IMG/VR virus record: IMGVR_UViG_2529292726_000023 | Coordinates: 1-15,263 of that record | Length of the DNA: 15,263 bases | Origin: a virus | Taxonomy: Duplodnaviria; Heunggongvirae; Uroviricota; Caudoviricetes | Reading direction: 5' to 3' (one strand) | Shown here: positions 2,605 through 14,859 of the stretch, one piece after another | Layout: every line of letters starts with the position of its first letter | How positions within the stretch are numbered: the first letter of the stretch is position 1 | Program-made: the position numbers and the translations under genes | The notes under the pieces: generated by a model | Told to the model about the DNA's origin: nothing | Databases searched by the model: none | What the model saw: the letters and a program-made list of their open reading frames with translations, nothing else

Positions 2605-3148
2605 GCATCACTGGAAAGTGGAAAAACAACCTGAGTGGTACGTGAAAGCTATCAGAAAAACTATCGCGGCATTGCCAGGTGGTTACGCTGAAGCTGCTGA
2701 CTGGCTGGATGTAACAGAGAACGCATTATTTAACCGCCTTCGTGCCGATGGCGATCAGTTTTTTCCGTTGGGATGGGCAATGGTTTTACAGCGTGCGGCT
2801 GGTACTCACCACATTGCGGATGCTGTCGCACAGTCTGCTGGTGGGGTGTTTGTATCACTTCCTGAAATTGAGGAAGTAGAGAACGCCGATATAAACCAGC
2901 GCCTGCTGGAAGTCATCGAACAGATCGGGAGTTACTCAAAGCAGATTCGTTCGGCAATCGAAGACGGGGTAGTGGAGCCACATGAGCAGACAGCAATTAA
3001 TGATGAGTTGTATCTGTCGATTTCGAAGCTCCAGGAACATGCGGCACTGGTCTACAAAATTTTCTGCGTTCCAGAAAAGAGTGACGCCCGCGAGTGTGCA
3101 GCTCCGGGCGTCGTGGCGTTTTGTGTCTGTGGAGAAACTAACGCATGA
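2597..3148 (+). CDS. Hypothetical early regulatory protein in the CII position, 183 aa; family uncertain (possibly CII/CP76-like)
   Basis: GTG start with AGGAGG RBS 6 nt upstream, overlapping the cro stop; stop overlaps the next start (ATGA). Family assignment is from position and memory only. Confidence 0.5.
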   Translation: MGKHHWKVEKQPEWYVKAIRKTIAALPGGYAEAADWLDVTENALFNRLRADGDQFFPLGWAMVLQRAAGTHHIADAVAQSAGGVFVSLPEIEEVENADINQRLLEVIEQIGSYSKQIRSAIEDGVVEPHEQTAINDELYLSISKLQEHAALVYKIFCVPEKSDARECAAPGVVAFCVCGETNA

Positions 3149-3750
3149 ACAGTTTAACGGCAAATAACCGTTGGTCGCAACAGCTGGTGGTCCGCGTGGC
3201 TGAACACCTGTTGTTACGGCATGAATGCAGATTACCAAATCACCTGGCTGTAAGTAACCACAGAGAACTTTACCTGACTGTGGGGGGCGAGTTGTGCAGG
3301 AACTTAACCGCTGGTTTCGTGACGGAAGAGGACTTTATGTTCATGTTATTCGTTGGGAGCCAGAAACACAGCGCGTTATCTATCTTCGCAAAGACTACCC
3401 GCATGAGTGCTTTAGTCCTTTGTGGAAATTCAGGCGTGATTTTGTTGAGTGTGAAGGACCACCAGCACATTGATTCTGCCATTCCGGGACGTTACACTGT
3501 TCAGGCACCTTATAAAGCGGGTGCCGGGCGTGGAAACCCGGAATTCACCAAAGCGCACAACCGCGCTCTTGCGGTTTTTTTGTGTCATGAGCAGCATTAC
3601 GCCCAAATTATGGTGGGGCGTGCAGGGCCAACTTCGGTTGGGCCGGGTTCTTTGGTGACCGGTATTTCCACCCCTGTACGTCTCACCACCAATAAGGTCG
3701 TGGAAAGCCTTGGTGGTGAGTTATTTAAAATCACCAAAGAGGCTGCCATC
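3145..3750 (+). other. Ambiguous coding region upstream of rha, in frame with it (no stop between 3145 and 4296); possible N-terminal extension, fusion or decayed gene
   Basis: ATG at 3145 is translationally coupled (ATGA) to the upstream gene, but the Rha domain has its own RBS and start at 3751. An alternative-frame ORF at 3294-3473 has a GGGGGG RBS 6 nt before its GTG. Confidence 0.35.
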
Positions 3751-4296
3751 ATGGCTACGATCCCAACCCTCACTCAACCTGAAATTGCCATCGTTGATGG
3801 TCAGGCTGTTACTTCATCCCTGGCTGTTGCCAACTTCTTCTCCAAACGTCATGACGATGTACTGAAAAAGATCCGCACGCTTGAATGCTCCGCATCATTC
3901 ACTGCCCGCAATTTTTCGGTGAGTGATTACACCGATTGCACAGGCCGCAAACTACCTTGCTATCAAATAACCCGCGACGGCTTTGCGTTTCTTGCTATGG
4001 GTTTCACGGGTAAACGTGCTGCCCAGTTCAAAGAGGCATACATCAATGCCTTTAACCAGATGGAGAAACAGCTTTCAAGGCCCGCTGTACCGAGCGACGT
4101 TGCACATAACGCCAGCGTTCTCTGTTCCTACATTTCATCAATTCATCAGGTCTGGCTGCAGCAGCTTTATCCTATGTTGGCAAAAGCCGAATCTCCGCTG
4201 GCTGTTAGCTTATATGACTATATTAATGATGCTTCGGCGCTGGCCTGCCTCATAAATTTGTCGCTGAACCCTTCAGAGGTAAGGGGGCGCAAATGA
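3751..4296 (+). CDS. Rha family phage regulatory protein, 181 aa
   Basis: MATIPTLTQPEIAIVDGQAVTSSLAVANFFSKRHDDVLKKIRTL matches the Rha domain N-terminal signature; AAAGAGG RBS 8 nt upstream of ATG 3751. May instead be the C-terminal part of a 383-aa ORF starting at 3145. Confidence 0.8.
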   Translation: MATIPTLTQPEIAIVDGQAVTSSLAVANFFSKRHDDVLKKIRTLECSASFTARNFSVSDYTDCTGRKLPCYQITRDGFAFLAMGFTGKRAAQFKEAYINAFNQMEKQLSRPAVPSDVAHNASVLCSYISSIHQVWLQQLYPMLAKAESPLAVSLYDYINDASALACLINLSLNPSEVRGRK

Positions 4297-8999: not shown

Positions 9000-9016
9000 T
9001 TTTGTGGAGAAAGTTG

Positions 9017-9382
9017 ATGCGTGATATTCAAATGGTTCTTGAACGTTGGGGGGCATGGGTGGCAAATAATCACGAGGATGTCACCTGGTCGTCTATTGCT
9101 GCAGGATTTAAAGGACTAATCCCTTCAAAAGTAAAATCCCGCCCGCAATGTTGTGACGATGACGCGATGATCATTTGTGGGTGCATGGCTCGCCTGAAAA
9201 AGAACAACAGCGATTTGCACGATTTATTAGTGGATTATTATGTAGGTGGTATGACGTTTATGGCGCTTGCCCGTAAACATGGGCGTTCTGATTGCTGGGT
9301 TGGGCGTTTATTGCAAAAGGCTGAAGGTGTAGTTGATGGCATGTTAATGATGTTAGAAATTGAGCTAGAGATGGATCGTTAG
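9017..9382 (+). CDS. Late-gene antiterminator Q (QuuD-like family), 121 aa
   Basis: [76 protein letters not shown] matches the Q antiterminator family of DLP12/phage-82 type as I remember it; GGAG RBS. Confidence 0.85.
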
Positions 9383-9423
9383 AAGACCTCTTATTGAGGG
9401 GGTAATTGAATCAGTTTAATGTG

Positions 9424-9458
9424 TGGGGAGTCGATTTATTCTCCCCATTTATTTAATT
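9424..9458 (+). terminator. Hairpin plus A/T-rich tract downstream of Q
   Basis: Stem GGGGAG (9424-9429) / CTCCCC (9440-9445), 10-nt loop, followed by ATTTATTTAATTAATTT; a possible promoter (TTGAGG 9393-9398, 17 nt, TAATGT 9416-9421) lies just upstream. Confidence 0.35.
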
Positions 9459-9465
9459 AATTTAC

Positions 9466-9912
9466 TTAAGGTTTTAATTCATCAAGACGTTGTTGGATAG
9501 TGTTTTTGCTTGCGTTGTCTGTTATAGCCATTTGTTGTACTTGCCCCATTGCCATTTGAGTTTCCATCCACATATCGGCCCACACTTTTGTATCGTTATT
9601 AACTTGAGCGATAGTAAATCTGACTTTTGATACCGGGGTTGTTGAATAGGCATTTCCGATTAACATTTGTCCAAAAACAGCAGAGCCGCCTTCCAGTTCT
9701 TTACCACATATAACACTGCTGTTATCCGCGTTGTAAATTATCAACCCTCTACTATTGCAGTAATTCACAAGGGCATCTTTGACTTTATCTTTTGTCGTAT
9801 TTTGATAAACCCCCTCAGGTTTTCCTGATTGAGTTTTCTTTATCAATGGTACGGAAGAAGTACAACCTGAAATGATAGTTGCGCTAAGTAATAGTACAGT
9901 CATTTTATTCAT
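9466..9912 (-). CDS. Lipoprotein of unknown function, 148 aa, AT-rich moron between Q and the tRNA array
   Basis: N-terminus MNKMTVLLLSATIISGCTSS is a signal peptide with lipobox (ISGC); opposite strand to flanking late genes; local GC visibly lower than the neighbours. Confidence 0.7.
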   Translation of the reverse strand: MNKMTVLLLSATIISGCTSSVPLIKKTQSGKPEGVYQNTTKDKVKDALVNYCNSRGLIIYNADNSSVICGKELEGGSAVFGQMLIGNAYSTTPVSKVRFTIAQVNNDTKVWADMWMETQMAMGQVQQMAITDNASKNTIQQRLDELKP

Positions 9913-10041
9913 GTTTCTTATCCATTGTTAAGGGTATACCCACACAATTATTTTTATTGGAGATGAATAATCAACCGTTTACAATCGTAAAAAATCAAAT
10001 ATGCTGTTAAGAGTGGTTACTTCGCCACACAACTTAACCCC

Positions 10042-10061
10042 GCCGCTGAGCGGTTTTTTTT
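10042..10061 (+). terminator. Intrinsic terminator (short GC stem plus T8)
   Basis: GCCGC-TGA-GCGG hairpin at 10042-10053 followed by TTTTTTTT at 10054-10061. Confidence 0.55.
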
Positions 10062-10142
10062 GTACCTGTAAACTTGGTGCAGTACAGTAAACACGCTGGT
10101 GGACAAGTGAAAAACAGCATTTAATCAGGCCTTCTGAAGATA

Positions 10143-10171
10143 TTGCAGTATTAATTCTGTAACGTTATTAT
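10143..10171 (+). promoter_or_regulatory. Candidate sigma70 promoter for the tRNA array
   Basis: -35 TTGCAG (10143-10148), 17-nt spacer, -10 TATTAT (10166-10171), about 9 nt before the first tRNA. Confidence 0.45.
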
Positions 10172-10180
10172 TCTGTGCGC

Positions 10181-10256
10181 GGCCCTTTAGCTCAGTGGTG
10201 AGAGCGAGCGACTCATAATCGCCAGGTCGCTGGTTCAAATCCAGCAAGGGCCACCA
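10181..10256 (+). tRNA. tRNA with CAU anticodon, most like tRNA-Ile2 (lysidine type; a plain scan would call it Met)
   Basis: 76-nt cloverleaf GGCCCTTTAGCTCAGTGGTGAGAGCG...CTCATAA...GGTTCAAATCCAGCAAGGGCCACCA; anticodon CAT at 10214-10216; encoded CCA; resembles enterobacterial ileX/ileZ. Confidence 0.85.
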
Positions 10257-10257
10257 A

Positions 10258-10334
10258 CTGCCACTAGCTCATCAGGAAAGAGCGTCAACCCTTTAAGTTG
10301 AGAGTGCGAGGTTCGAGTCCCCGGTGGCGGTCCA
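10258..10334 (+). tRNA. tRNA-like gene with noncanonical anticodon loop CCTTTAA (position 33 is C); anticodon reads UUU (Lys) by standard numbering; identity uncertain, possibly a pseudo-tRNA
   Basis: Acceptor CTGCCAC/GTGGCGG (one G-U pair), D-stem GCTC/GAGC, anticodon stem TCAAC/GTTGA, T-loop TTCGAGT with one A-C mismatch in the T-stem, encoded CCA. Confidence 0.5.
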
Positions 10335-10336
10335 GT

Positions 10337-10412
<76 letters not shown>

Positions 10413-10415
10413 TGT

Positions 10416-10490
<75 letters not shown>

Positions 10491-10496
10491 GTTAGA

Positions 10497-10542
10497 GTCT
10501 TTCAGTCTGCGATGATGGGAAATCCCGGAGTGACTGAAAGAC
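10497..10542. repeat. Perfect 11-bp inverted repeat GTCTTTCAGTC / GACTGAAAGAC with 24-nt spacer
   Basis: Direct reading; immediately downstream of the tRNA array. Confidence 0.7.
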
Positions 10543-10550
10543 GTTTAAGT

Positions 10551-10620
10551 TATGAATGATCGCTTTTTTTGCAAAATTGCTGTGCAGAAATACTAACCTT
10601 CGGGCAGGCGATCATTCATA
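10551..10620. repeat. Perfect 13-bp inverted repeat TATGAATGATCGC / GCGATCATTCATA with 44-nt spacer
   Basis: Direct reading; spacer contains a T7 run and a possible promoter (TTGCAA ... TACTAA). Confidence 0.7.
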
Positions 10621-10696: not shown

Positions 10697-10720
10697 GCCC
10701 GCTTTTGCGGGTTTTTCTTT
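10697..10720 (+). terminator. Strong intrinsic terminator just upstream of the lysis cassette (candidate tR'-type terminator read through by Q-modified polymerase)
   Basis: GCCCGC-TTTT-GCGGG hairpin (10697-10711) followed by TTTTTCTTTT. Confidence 0.65.
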
Positions 10721-11001: not shown

Positions 11002-11346
11002 ATGACACAAAAATATGAACTGATTGTGAAAGGGATCCGCAATTTTGAGAATAAAGTTACGGTAACTTTAGCGTTACGGGACAAAAAACGCTTTGACGGT
11101 GAAATTTTAGACCTGGACATCTCGCTGGACCGTGTTGAAGGTGCCGCGCTGGAGTTTTATGAGGCAGCAGCCAGAAGGAGCATCAGACAGGTCTTCCTGG
11201 ATGTTGCTGCCGGGTTATGTGAAGGGGATGAGCAGTCACCGGAAAAGCGCCCCATAATTTTAGAGGCGCAGGGTGTGTGGATAACCTACAAAGGAAAACT
11301 GCCGGGAAGAATTACTGGTTCACTGAAGACTCCGCCGAAATGGTAA
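11002..11346 (+). CDS. Hypothetical protein, 114 aa, between holin and endolysin (same position as Qin YdfR); function unknown
   Basis: ATG 11002 with GGGGAGAG RBS, 4 nt after the holin stop; product MTQKYELIVKGIRNFENKVTVTLALRDKKRFDGEILDLD...; 3' end overlaps the convergent gene by 35 bp. Confidence 0.6.
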   Translation: MTQKYELIVKGIRNFENKVTVTLALRDKKRFDGEILDLDISLDRVEGAALEFYEAAARRSIRQVFLDVAAGLCEGDEQSPEKRPIILEAQGVWITYKGKLPGRITGSLKTPPKW

Positions 11347-11584
11347 TTTCACCAGCATATTTTTCTTCCAGTAATACCGCCAGCCACTTGAAAGAATTTT
11401 GTTGTTGCTGGGACCATTTGGGGTTGAGTGATTCAAGCTGGAGCGATGCCAGTGTTGGTTGCATTTGTTCCTTGGGAATTGAGAATGCCAGATATGAAAA
11501 TGCGACAGTAAGGGCATTTACATCATCCCGAAGCTTGGAAATGCAGTCGAGCAACTCCTGTAGAGAAATGGTGCTATTGTCCAT
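11312..11584 (-). CDS. Hypothetical small protein, 90 aa, antisense to the lysis operon; one hydrophobic segment; function unknown
   Basis: ATG at 11584 on the minus strand with GAGAGGA RBS 6 nt upstream; product MDNSTISLQELLDCISKLRDDVNALTVAFSYLAFSIPKEQ...; candidate promoter TTGAAT (11624-11629) / TACAAT (11599-11604). Confidence 0.55.
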   Translation of the reverse strand: MDNSTISLQELLDCISKLRDDVNALTVAFSYLAFSIPKEQMQPTLASLQLESLNPKWSQQQQNSFKWLAVLLEEKYAGEITISAESSVNQ

Positions 11585-11689
11585 AAACAATCCTCTCTAT
11601 TGTATTTAACTATTCCTTGCCTGATTCAACAGGCCGGGACAGATAAACATATCCAGGGTTCAGAAACCGATAAATCCTGATAAATATCC

Positions 11690-12223
11690 ATGAGCGCAAA
11701 AATCAAATACGGCCTGTCAGCTGCTGTTCTGGCGCTGATTGCTGCAGGCGCGTCTGCTCCTCAAATACTTGACCAGTTTCTGGATGAAAAAGAGGGTAAC
11801 CACACTACGGCATACCGCGATGGTTCCGGTATATGGACCATCTGTCGTGGTGCCACAATGGTGGATGGTAAGCCCGTCATACCGGGAATGAAGCTGTCGA
11901 AGGAAAAATGCGACCAGGTTAACGCTATTGAACGTGATAAGGCGCTGGCATGGGTGGAGCGCAATATTAAAGTACCACTGACCGAACCACAGAAAGCGGG
12001 TATAGCGTCATTTTGTCCCTATAACATTGGCCCCGGTAAGTGTTTCCCGTCGACGTTTTATAAGCGGCTGAATGCCGGTGATCGTAAGAGTGCATACGAG
12101 GCGATTCGCTGGTGGATAAAAGATGGTGGGCGCGATTGCCGCATACGTTCAAATAACTGCTATGGACAGGTTATTCGTCGTGACCAGGAAAGCGCATTAG
12201 CCTGTTGGGGGATAGATCAGTGA
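11690..12223 (+). CDS. SAR endolysin (T4-lysozyme-like muramidase with N-terminal signal-anchor-release domain), 177 aa
   Basis: N-terminal [18 protein letters not shown] hydrophobic SAR segment, then E...D...T lysozyme motif region ([23 protein letters not shown]); follows a pinholin as in phage 21. Confidence 0.9.
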
Positions 12224-12687
12224 GCAGAGTCGCCGCGATTATTTATGCTCTGGTTATCTGCATCATCGTCTGCCTGTCGTGGGCGGTCAATCATTGCCGT
12301 GATAACGCCATCGCCTACAAAGAACAGCGTGATAAAAAAGTCAGTGAGCTGAAGCAGGCGACCGCCACCATTACTGACATGCAGCAACGCCAGCGTGCTG
12401 CTGATGTACTCGATGCTAAATACACGAAGGAGTTGGCTGATGCGAAAGCTGAAAATGATGCTCTTCGGCGCAAGCTTGATAATGGTGGTCGGGTGCTCGT
12501 CAAAGGAAAATGCTCTGTGCCATCCTCAGCCGAAACCTCCAGCGCCTCCGGCATGGGCAATGATGCCACCGTCGAACTCTCTCCAGTTGCTGGACGAAAC
12601 GTTCTCGGTATCCGGGACGGAATCATCAGAGACCAGACAGCACTGAGAACGCTTCAGGAATATATCAGGACGCAATGCCTTCGATGA
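12220..12687 (+). CDS. Rz inner-membrane spanin, about 155 aa
   Basis: GTG 12220 overlaps the endolysin stop (GTGA); N-terminal [22 protein letters not shown] then charged coiled-coil region; contains Rz1 in the +1 frame. Confidence 0.85.
12440..12646 (+). CDS. Rz1 outer-membrane lipoprotein spanin, 68 aa, embedded in Rz
   Basis: [39 protein letters not shown]: signal peptide, lipobox VVGC, proline-rich; AAGGAG RBS 7 nt upstream. Confidence 0.85.
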
Positions 12688-13501: not shown

Positions 13502-13993
13502 ATGGATCATGAGTTGAAAAACCTGGTGCTGAATATTAATCAACTGGCGGCTTTATCTGGTCTGCACCGCCAGACTGTCGTGGCAAGACTGAAAAACATT
13601 CGTCCCGCTGGTGGACATGACAAACTCAAGCTATACCGGTTGACCGATATTCTGACTGAATTTATGGGGTTACCACCGCCGGTTGCTGAGGGCGAAATGG
13701 ATCCACATGAACGCAAAGCCTGGTATCAGTCTGAACGTGAGCGTCTTAAGTTCGAACAGGAAACGGCACAACTCATTCCGGCCAGTGATGTCAGACGGGA
13801 GTTTGCCATCTGGGCAAAAGCGGTCGTGCAGGTGCTGGAGACATTACCGGATATTCTGGAACGTGACTGCGGCCTGCAGCCTGTCGCTGTGAGCCGTGTT
13901 CAGTCCATTATTGATGATCTGCGCGATCAGATAGCCCTGCGGGTGACCGAAGCAGGTGCGGATGATGAGGAGGAATTACAGCAGGAGGAGTAA
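13502..13993 (+). CDS. Terminase small subunit (Nu1-like), 163 aa
   Basis: N-terminal HTH-like LNINQLAALSGLHRQTVVARLKNI, acidic C-terminus; directly precedes the large terminase with TAATG overlap; GGAGG RBS. Confidence 0.8.
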   Translation: MDHELKNLVLNINQLAALSGLHRQTVVARLKNIRPAGGHDKLKLYRLTDILTEFMGLPPPVAEGEMDPHERKAWYQSERERLKFEQETAQLIPASDVRREFAIWAKAVVQVLETLPDILERDCGLQPVAVSRVQSIIDDLRDQIALRVTEAGADDEEELQQEE

Positions 13994-14859
13994 TGCTGAA
14001 TCAGGAAACCGCAAAGGCAGCACGAACCGATTCAGGTTATATCCTTCGCGCACCGAGACGAATGCGGGTTGCTGATGCCGTTGCTCAGTATATGCGAGTG
14101 CCCATGGGGGCCGGGAACTCAGTCCCGTGGGATCCGCTGGTGGCACCGTATGTTCTTGAGCCGATGAACTGCCTGGCCTCGCGTGAATACGACGCAGTGA
14201 TATTTGTTGGTCCGGCACGAACCGGCAAGACTATCGGCCTGATTGACGGCTGGGTGATTTACAACGTGATTTGCGATCCTGCGGATATGCTGATCATTCA
14301 GATGACGGAGGAAAAAGCCCGCGAACACTCCAAAAAACGACTTGCCAGAACGTTTCGCGTCAGCCCGGAAGTGGTCAGTCGCCTGAGTCCGAACAAAAAT
14401 GACAACAACGTTTATGACAGAACATTCCTTGCTGGCAACTACCTGAAAATCGGCTGGCCGTCAGTCAATATCATGTCCTCATCAGATTATAAATGCGTGG
14501 CGCTGACGGATTATGACCGTTTTCCGGAAGATATTGATGGCGAGGGGGATGCCTTCTCTCTTGCCTCAAAACGTACCACCACATTTATGTCCAGTGGTAT
14601 GACGCTGGTGGAGAGTTCCCCCGGCAGGGATGTGAAGGATGTGAAATGGCGACGGACTTCACCGCATGAGGCTCCACCAACCACGGGGATACTGTCGCTC
14701 TATAACCGTGGCGATCGCCGTCGCTGGTACTGGCCCTGTCCACACTGTGGTGAGTATTTTCAGCCCTGCGGCGATGTGGTTGCTGGTTTCCGTGATATTG
14801 CCGATCCCGTGCTGGCAAGTGAGGCGGCTTATATTCAGTGTCCTTCCTGTTCATATTAG
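13993..14859 (+). pseudogene. Terminase large subunit (lambda gpA-like), truncated after about 288 codons at the IS21-family insertion
   Basis: Walker A-like FVGPARTGKT; ...DYDRFPEDIDGEGDAFSLASKRTT...YWPCPHCGEYFQ parallels lambda gpA; frame stops at 14857-14859, where the IS terminus begins. Full-length gpA is about 640 aa. Confidence 0.8.

Follow-up and report, generated by a model that had tools for sequence, protein, structure and literature searches.

A reverse-oriented gene at positions 9466-9912 (minus strand) of the 15,263-nucleotide stretch analyzed here, IMG/VR record IMGVR_UViG_2529292726_000023 from a virus of the Caudoviricetes (hereafter the window), very probably encodes a real, exported lipoprotein borne on a moron. 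The product belongs to an uncharacterized lipoprotein family that lies outside every known exclusion family, its kind, the prophage moron lipoprotein, being known already. We show here that this moron is self-contained and horizontally mobile; in the window, it is inserted between the antiterminator gene Q and the late promoter pR'. Through its family context and by analogy with known exclusion genes, we tentatively favor superinfection exclusion at the level of the envelope, with a block to phage entry, as the likeliest of the functions that can be assigned to it.

The original prediction had been made from the letters of the sequence and a list of its open reading frames (ORFs). It placed a low-GC, reverse-oriented gene for a 148-residue lipoprotein between Q and the tRNA array, and in each of these respects it was borne out. 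The ORF list gives exactly these coordinates for a coding sequence of 148 codons with an ATG start, whose translation begins MNKMTVLLLSATIISGC and is assigned to PHROG 3152. Its G+C content is 0.378 (0.322 at third codon positions) versus 0.511 in the flanks, taken as 4 kb on each side, and a deficit of 10-16 points relative to the flanks is found across the enterobacterial phage loci of the family. On the left, the gene is convergent with the Q gene (9017-9382, plus strand), an antiterminator gene of the PF06530 type, 82/QuuD-like according to its translation and to the RefSeq label at a 99.9%-identical locus, which shares 83-89% identity with quuD alleles. On the right, it lies upstream of an array of four tRNA genes (10181-10490, plus strand) and of the holin gene (10782, plus strand). 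The 99.9%-identical locus is an E. coli prophage, the identity holding over the stretches compared (9300-10150 and 9000-10600). There RefSeq gives the order 'antiterminator Q family protein', the lipoprotein ORF in convergent orientation, four tRNA genes, a class II holin, YdfR and lysozyme, and labels the lipoprotein ORF a hypothetical protein (WP_001038608.1).

How the gene came to lie there is best seen from the elements that control late transcription. In lambdoid phages, the Q-responsive promoter pR' and the terminator tR' are found directly downstream of Q. In the window, a promoter scan detects a pR'-like element, TTTACA-16-TATGCT (9978-10005, plus strand), and this element is followed at 10006-10062 (plus strand; terminator scan and fold) by a late leader, CTGTTAAGAGTGGTTACTTCGCCACACAACTTAA, and a tR'-like intrinsic terminator, formed by the stem GCCGC-TGA-GCGGT at 10042-10054 and then eight T. 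A single copy of the leader motif is present in each Q-linked locus, and the exact pR' promoter motif is present in 45 of the 49 E. coli-type loci. From this position, consensus and conservation we infer that 9978-10062 constitutes pR', leader and tR', the latter being the site for read-through by Q-modified polymerase.

The CFSAN029787 prophage, which has the same Q family and a similar tRNA array and lacks the lipoprotein gene, shows the same interval in its empty state. Its alignment to the window begins at about 9985, and 26 bp lead from its Q stop codon to TTTACG-17-TATTCT, followed by the conserved leader and then by a GC-rich hairpin and T-run, versus a gap of about 590 bp, lipoprotein gene included, between the Q stop and pR' of the window. 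The gene is thus extra DNA relative to a collinear relative as well as deviant in base composition, and the moron status proposed for it holds. The inserted lipoprotein cassette (about 9383-9975) is flanked by Q, with which it is convergent, and by pR', from which it diverges; the Q stop codon forms the left edge of the slot and the pR' element its right edge. Late transcription consequently crosses the cassette in neither sense, leaving it outside the late transcript that depends on Q. All 49 E. coli-type viral contigs share this arrangement with its constant Q-lipoprotein-pR' block, and the cargo after tR' is variable among them, mostly a Dam methylase gene and rarely a tRNA array.

The same slot can hold another envelope gene. 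In the DLP12-like prophage of RX24 (L102, 1632-3507), with the gene order ybcN-ninE-ybcO-rusA-quuD-porin-essD-rrrD-rzpD-iss, a reverse-oriented porin gene of the nmpC type lies between quuD and the same conserved pR', leader and terminator, the leader motif being located past the 5' end of the porin gene. In lambdoid prophages of the 82/QuuD type, the Q/pR' interval serves recurrently as a slot for envelope genes that are reverse-oriented and of the lysogen-expressed type; at least three states of this slot are observed: empty, lipoprotein and porin. The position had been compared beforehand with the cargo slots of both nmpC and stx. The nmpC half of this comparison (nmpC/Lc type) stands, given the RX24 porin in the same slot with the same leader motif. 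The stx half does not: in Stx phages, stx is part of the late transcript, being located downstream of both pR' and tR', and the lipoprotein gene is upstream of pR' (9978-10005), on the opposite strand and divergent from it, so that a late-operon cargo of the stx type was rejected. The RX24 prophage also has a reverse-oriented iss/bor lipoprotein gene after rzpD.

Two further elements bear on how the cassette may be expressed. Promoter scans detect a candidate sigma-70 promoter for the lipoprotein gene, TTGATT-16-AATAAT (9947-9974, minus strand; 9 of 12 consensus matches), 34 nt upstream of the ATG, whose -35 hexamer is back to back with that of pR' at a distance of 3 bp. A better-scoring promoter-like site at 9931-9902 was rejected, its -10 hexamer falling past the start codon, inside the coding sequence. 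In the gap where the Q and lipoprotein genes converge, the terminator scan and folding reveal a GC-rich hairpin, GGGGAGT...ATTCTCC (9425-9444), with fold z-scores of -3.7 on the plus strand and -3.2 on the minus strand. It has a T-rich tail on the plus strand and no U-tract on the minus strand. It is a candidate plus-strand terminator of Q read-through; on the minus strand it may form the 3' end of the lipoprotein mRNA or stabilize it, and it looks more like a stop to Q read-through than like a classical terminator of that mRNA.

The gene is evidently maintained. Among homologues sharing 50-72% protein identity, the proportion of synonymous differences is 0.6-0.9 (saturated) and that of nonsynonymous differences 0.08-0.4, and the ratio of nonsynonymous to synonymous rates (dN/dS), where computable, is 0.07-0.23; these sequence comparisons clearly point to purifying selection. 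A full-length gene is present in 185 of the 5426 complete E. coli genomes (3.4%), in 176 of them at 99% identity or more. All 185 matches being full length, no disrupted copy was noticed among them; one variant at 91.9% identity lacks annotation. The carriers come from very mixed sources, including the uropathogenic strains UTI89 and NU14 and blood isolates, and two isolated temperate phages, PhiR40_1 and PhiR55_1, also carry the gene. In strain 510016 (L001, 11391-14742), the closest complete genome, the prophage is truncated in its lysozyme gene by IS21 (ISEc62) and IS1 insertion sequences. The structural genes of this remnant are gone and its lipoprotein gene is intact and 100% identical to the window copy. 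In the window, the lysozyme ORF (11690-12223) is intact and is accompanied by an Rz-type ORF (12205-12687) and, at 13502-14859, by ORFs at the position of the terminase genes of the related phage PhiR40_1. The window therefore derives from a different and less decayed copy than the prophage of strain 510016.

The protein carries the marks of a lipoprotein, as had been predicted. Codons 1-17 (9862-9912, minus strand), read from the sequence, specify a signal peptide and a lipobox I-S-G-C: the N-terminus is MNKMTVLLLSATIISG followed by C17, with an n-region containing K3, a hydrophobic core, and IISG directly before the cysteine, in agreement with the pattern [LVI][ASTVI][GAS]C expected after a signal peptide. 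Cys17, the predicted lipidation site, is invariant in both family alignments, A1 and the broad alignment A3 of 50 diverse members. A lipobox is present in at least 130 of 167 family members. In Enterobacterales, a lipoprotein without Asp at position +2 is sorted to the outer membrane by the Lol pathway. The +2 residue of the window protein is Thr, so that the inner-membrane retention signal is missing, and Asp occurs at this position in none of 130 members; sorting to the outer membrane is predicted on these grounds. Both alignments also reveal the conserved motifs K-x-T-x-SG(K/Y)PE, IGN(A/S)YSTTP and ETQMAxGQ, and a conserved Cys52/Cys69 pair.

An AlphaFold2 model built on 20 sequences (mean predicted local distance difference test score 85.8, predicted template modeling score 0.76) gives for the mature protein a compact alpha/beta domain of about 115 residues, with the topology beta-alpha-beta-beta-alpha-beta-beta-beta-alpha and a fold of the helix-grip/BamC/KA1 type. 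Confidence is low for only about four residues after Cys17, and residues 21-30 are already confidently modeled; the tether is therefore probably very short, and would keep the domain close to the outer membrane on its periplasmic side. Among the distant relatives, a minority carry an ordinary signal peptide in place of the lipobox, and several (P0106, P0117, P0141, P0188, P0101, P0105, P0116 and one on the Erythrobacter plasmid NZ_CP031358.1) are fused at their C-terminus to a PDZ domain, in one case also with SHOCT, or to a TPR domain resembling CpoB/YbgF. The conserved Cys pair, together with these ordinary signal peptides and PDZ/TPR domains, argues for a periplasmic domain. The predicted fold resembles the helix-grip of BamC, Flpp3 (DUF3568), DUF4468/TBP-like lipoproteins and eukaryotic KA1 domains. 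These differ from the lipoprotein in sequence (6-10% identity, and no profile match), and the likeness, as far as the model goes, suggests a common superfold that is uninformative on function, an 'envelope-type binding module' and no more. A structure search in BFVD gave no match, and sequence searches of the PDB with both family profiles returned nothing meaningful.

The statement that no family could be recognized for this protein also stood up to the homology searches proposed with it. No Pfam, NCBIfam or PADLOC model matches the window protein, and the sole full-length match is to PHROG 3152 (E 1.3e-104 over residues 1-148 of 148), whose function is unassigned and which is matched by all 50 members of A3. 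When these members were scanned singly, no library matched the lipoprotein domain itself. The Pfam scan gave no match to PF06291 (Bor/Iss), even at E values up to 1, and no similarity to the TraT and Lom families, and none of the PHROG or PADLOC models annotated for exclusion or defense, including Llp of T5, was matched. The remaining hits were confined to the N-terminus or otherwise dismissed. The Cor family (PHROG 1119) was hit by 2 of the 50 members at E of about 1e-4, in an alignment limited to residues 1-26 of N15 Cor, that is signal peptide and lipobox. Rz-like spanin PHROGs appeared at E of about 0.02-0.04 over the N-terminal 33-48 residues only, and an assignment as the o-spanin Rz1 was rejected, the gene being on the strand opposite to the Rz-type ORF (12205-12687) and 2.3 kb upstream of it, with a PHROG match covering residues 1-45. 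A DUF6491 match extended over residues 1-24 only. Weak matches to TrbK and YgdI/YgdR were judged to be signal-peptide similarity without a residue-by-residue check, and the UniRef label 'VirB7' on a Xenorhabdus homologue was probably transferred from the lipid-attachment-site motif.

The family is nonetheless large. A word-indexed search returned about 30 relatives, all from Enterobacterales, and a second such search added few members, while an exhaustive profile search retrieved 823 clusters at 50% identity with E values of at most 1e-3, and 408 with E values of at most 1e-10. A mobile element was found in every family context examined. The IMG/VR scan for related loci, made with alignment A1, gave 75 loci, 25 of them divergent at 40-70% identity. 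No fewer than 23 of these 25 lie inside the lambda-type tail-tip module H-M-L-K-I-J and are co-oriented with it, at five or more junctions (H-M, M-L, K-I, before H and before J), although the 25 include several near-duplicate groups and are not all independent. Close homologues in prophages of Salmonella and Jejubacter likewise lie at the K-I junction or close to I and J. Others lie between H, the tape-measure gene, and M in Citrobacter amalonaticus (P0010) and in P0014, which occurs in read-archive assemblies only, and a cor-like position, after J and its downstream genes, is also occupied. Further contexts include M-L, before H, before J, a nin-type region, a place next to cI, and a P1-like element beside DarA/DdrB. 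Distant members adjoin a resolvase, a MobA/MobL relaxase or an integrase/AlpA/primase set, and also occur on two plasmids. The family thus shows a strong preference for the tail-tip module, the position beside Q in E. coli being the exception.

The cassette moreover seems to travel with its own end. Even in the middle of the tail operon, a strong intrinsic terminator is present 8-68 nt after the stop codon in 20 of 27 family loci, versus 11% of control windows; a promoter-like site lies upstream in 5 of the 27, versus 4.5% of controls. The many distinct junctions, together with the distinct terminator sequences, indicate repeated insertion. In several loci (L003, L074, L075, L077, L081 and the P0007 contig), the lipoprotein gene adjoins a block encoding an Arc-like repressor, Bro-N and KilA-N/ANT domains, an immI-like accessory island in the tail operon that recalls the position of P22 sieA beside mnt (PMC10883804).

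It is this neighborhood that makes an exclusion function attractive. Gene 15 of HK97 is flanked by the chaperone gene and the tape-measure gene, and the tail region is where its specificity resides (PMC3594210). In T5, llp adjoins the gene for the receptor-binding protein pb5, and similar lipoprotein genes are found downstream of gpJ in many siphophages (PMC9586334), as is cor downstream of J in N15. P22 sieA is located between the ejection-protein gene 16 and the tailspike gene 9, with escape mutations in the ejection proteins (PMC10883804), and the lipoprotein (Lpp) genes of mEpimmI, in the structural cluster, exclude phages dependent on OmpA or LamB (PMC11893012). The characterized extras among or beside DNA-delivery genes are predominantly superinfection-exclusion genes, and the family resembles them in five respects: it is of the lipoprotein type, is predicted to lie at the outer membrane on the periplasmic side, has a short tether and a moron architecture, and occupies the same kind of neighborhood.

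In the mechanism that we envisage, a weak sigma-70 promoter of its own would drive the gene as long as the prophage is repressed by CI. After lipidation at Cys17, the product would be delivered by Lol to the inner leaflet of the outer membrane, with Cys52 and Cys69 oxidized to a disulfide. The target of the domain would be either an outer-membrane receptor, bound from the periplasmic side as FhuA is by Llp and Cor, or the incoming complex of tail tip and tape measure, as proposed for HK97 gp15. By either mode of binding, DNA of lambda-type siphophages would be kept from crossing the envelope.

Which of these targets would apply can be approached through the receptor-binding domain (RBD) at the C-terminus of J. 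The RBD type of PhiR40_1 is common in Stx phages without the lipoprotein gene, and in tail-embedded relatives the J C-terminus bears no relation to the one of PhiR40_1. Comparison of L103 and L104 with L012/L022 gave tape-measure proteins 98-99% identical and J RBDs 61-92% identical, a result that does not discriminate, as it comes from three prophages of one lineage. RBDs are being swapped within this lineage of three E. coli carrier prophages. On the J comparisons as a whole, a link of the lipoprotein to one particular J RBD was rejected, which leans mildly toward interception of the tail-tip/tape-measure complex, or toward a target other than the receptor of the phage itself. A bolder proposal, which we consider rather unlikely as it stands, is that PHROG 3152, with its relatives in prophages, P1-like elements, mobilizable islands and plasmids, is the tip of a large unmodeled family of periplasmic helix-grip lipoproteins forming a new class of superinfection exclusion, one that, anchored to the outer membrane, would intercept the incoming tail-tip/tape-measure complex of lambda-type siphophages in the periplasm and would not mask a particular surface receptor. 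Such interception would explain why the gene travels with the H-to-J module, why it keeps to no single J RBD, and how it could move to the Q/pR' slot without loss.

A number of observations weigh against exclusion. Homologues at 70% identity are paired with unrelated J C-termini; among about 50 phages whose RBD is at least 80% identical to that of PhiR40_1, two hold the lipoprotein gene; and in E. coli carriers whose lipoproteins share 99% identity or more, identity between the J RBDs is only 61-92%. The lipoprotein has no homology to Cor, Llp, Bor or Rz1 beyond the signal peptide. The gene is found in just 2 of 50,697 sequenced phage genomes. For the window copy, the promoter match is weak and its activity inferred, and the terminator scan found no canonical terminator on the lipoprotein strand. 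When the literature was searched with the protein accession, locus tag and phage name, neither lysogen expression data nor a phenotype for the family emerged. Finally, junctions in tail operons are general hot spots for morons, and position alone therefore does not specify function.

The comparison with characterized systems is similarly two-sided. Cor (phi80, N15 and T1) and Llp (T5) are, like the window protein, small phage lipoproteins with a classical lipobox and a predicted outer-membrane anchor facing the periplasm; all have a disulfide, predicted in the case of the window protein, and their genes are accessory and, in the relatives, mostly located beside tail-tip or receptor-binding genes (PMC9586334). 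However, there is no homology outside the signal peptide, the mature domain, with about 130 residues, is roughly double the size of that of Cor and Llp (45-60), its helix-grip-like fold is different, the family is unlinked to FhuA-type RBDs, and the window gene is beside Q and not beside J. HK97 gp15 and P22 SieA resemble the family as products of morons in or beside the DNA-delivery genes, with an independent terminator and a presumed expression from the prophage; one relative (L090) even lies between the tail-tube and tape-measure genes, in the region of HK97 gene 15 (PMC3594210). Yet both are inner-membrane proteins, not lipoproteins (PMC3594210, PMC10883804), and neither has any sequence relation to the window lipoprotein. 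The nmpC/Lc porin cassette of DLP12/PA-2-type prophages has slot, orientation and an envelope product in common with the window gene, but encodes a 16-strand porin instead of a small lipoprotein and is about three times longer. The Bor/Iss genes of lambda and DLP12 are likewise reverse-oriented lipoprotein genes of the lysogen-expressed type, flanking the late and lysis region; they differ in the missing PF06291 match and in their place, bor following Rz and the window gene preceding pR'.

Another explanation is that the gene is host-fitness or virulence cargo in the manner of Bor/Iss, Lom or TraT, acting in serum resistance, adhesion, stress or permeability and playing no part in exclusion. 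The slot, the orientation and the lysogen-type arrangement, all as in the nmpC/Lc porin cassette, are in its favor, as are the reverse iss/bor gene of the DLP12-like RX24 prophage, the presence among the carriers of uropathogenic UTI89 and NU14 and of blood isolates, the intact copy kept in a decayed prophage, and the resemblance of the fold to the envelope lipoproteins BamC and Flpp3. We nevertheless regard it as unlikely: the protein is not similar to the Bor/Iss, TraT or Lom families, the tail-tip placement in 23 of 25 divergent phages would have no obvious reason, and the gene is present in only 3.4% of complete E. coli genomes, of very mixed sources. Somewhat less likely still is that the protein is a helper of the lytic cycle and not a factor of lysogenic conversion, made late and acting in the periplasm during or after lysis, either to neutralize receptors in cell debris and so spare progeny, like the 'lytic conversion' ascribed to Llp (PMC9586334), or to modulate envelope breakdown. 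In its favor, the 23 co-oriented loci inside the late operon must be read by late transcription, and a promoter-like site is found upstream in just 5 of 27 loci. Such a role is disfavored for the window lineage (49 viral loci and 185 genomes), in which the gene is reversed and upstream of pR' and cannot be produced by late transcription. In addition, the window possesses a separate and complete lysis cassette (holin, lysozyme and Rz), and the matches to Rz-like spanin PHROGs are very weak and restricted to the N-terminal 33-48 residues.

We give little credence to the idea of an orphan immunity protein or inhibitor, directed against a colicin or bacteriocin acting in the periplasm, a type VI amidase or muramidase effector, or a lysozyme. 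Its appeal lies in the small periplasmic or outer-membrane lipoprotein itself, with its disulfide and conserved polar loops (SGKPE, GNxYSTTP and ETQMAxGQ), in the many kinds of mobile elements besides phages that carry it, in the relatives fused to protein-binding PDZ or TPR modules, and in the report that Cor also protects against colicin M (PMC3594210). But a cognate toxin gene was adjacent in none of the roughly 40 contexts examined, the fold searches yielded neither Ivy, MliC/PliC nor known type VI immunity proteins, and the preference for the tail module is left unexplained. Far less probable still is that the gene is a silent passenger in E. coli, an AT-rich cassette silenced by H-NS or devoid of a promoter and retained through its linkage to the Q/pR' block of a successful lineage. 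Admittedly, its promoter match is weak, its own strand lacks a canonical terminator, its G+C content is 38%, and all E. coli copies are strictly linked to one Q/pR' block. This is difficult to reconcile with the strong purifying selection across the family, with the 185 full-length genome matches, and with the repeated independent insertion of the cassette, equipped with its own terminator, at many sites. Envelope-level exclusion thus remains the function that we tentatively prefer.

Several other features of the window deserve mention. The tRNA array (10181-10490, plus strand), identified by ARAGORN and Rfam as Ile2/Met(CAU), Lys(UUU), Thr(UGU) and Gly(UCC), begins with a tRNA that is Met(CAT) according to ARAGORN and Ile according to RefSeq. 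It lies downstream of tR', and homology to other prophages resumes at about 10143, independently of the Q/pR' block; the array is interchangeable late-region cargo, separate from the lipoprotein cassette. In CFSAN029787 (L013, 2089-2399), the array is Ile-Arg-Thr-Gly, versus Ile2(CAU)-Lys-Thr-Gly in the window, with the same flanks, which indicates that it is modular. A strong intrinsic terminator, GCCCGCTTTTGCGGGT followed by a T-run (10697-10712, plus strand), is located between the array and the holin gene, and late transcripts must therefore read through at least two terminators. A second reverse ORF (11312-11590, minus strand; 92 residues from the first TTG, annotated in RefSeq as a 90-residue hypothetical protein, WP_000370546.1) overlaps the end of ydfR inside the lysis cassette and has no signal peptide. 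In the early region, Rfam detects an isrK Hfq-binding RNA (3505-3581, plus strand; 67 bits) inside the Rha-family gene (3145-4296) and, directly after it, a C4 antisense RNA (3606-3693, plus strand; 83.6 bits). The two together make up an antisense immunity element of the P1/P7 type, c4/ant-like, within a lambdoid early region.

A lipoprotein moron is in itself unsurprising to the specialist; what stands out is the size of this unmodeled family and its consistent placement. Should the protein have no phage phenotype, it would be one more uncharacterized lipoprotein moron. Whatever its function, the Q/pR' slot with its three states and the tail-tip preference of the family can be reused for annotation. 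If exclusion is true, the family would represent a widespread, prophage-borne defense of the envelope, present in about 3% of complete E. coli genomes, model uropathogens included, and in many prophages of Enterobacterales, and missed by current defense-finder models; its structural unrelatedness to Cor and Llp would then open a new way of studying the passage of siphophage DNA through the periplasm.

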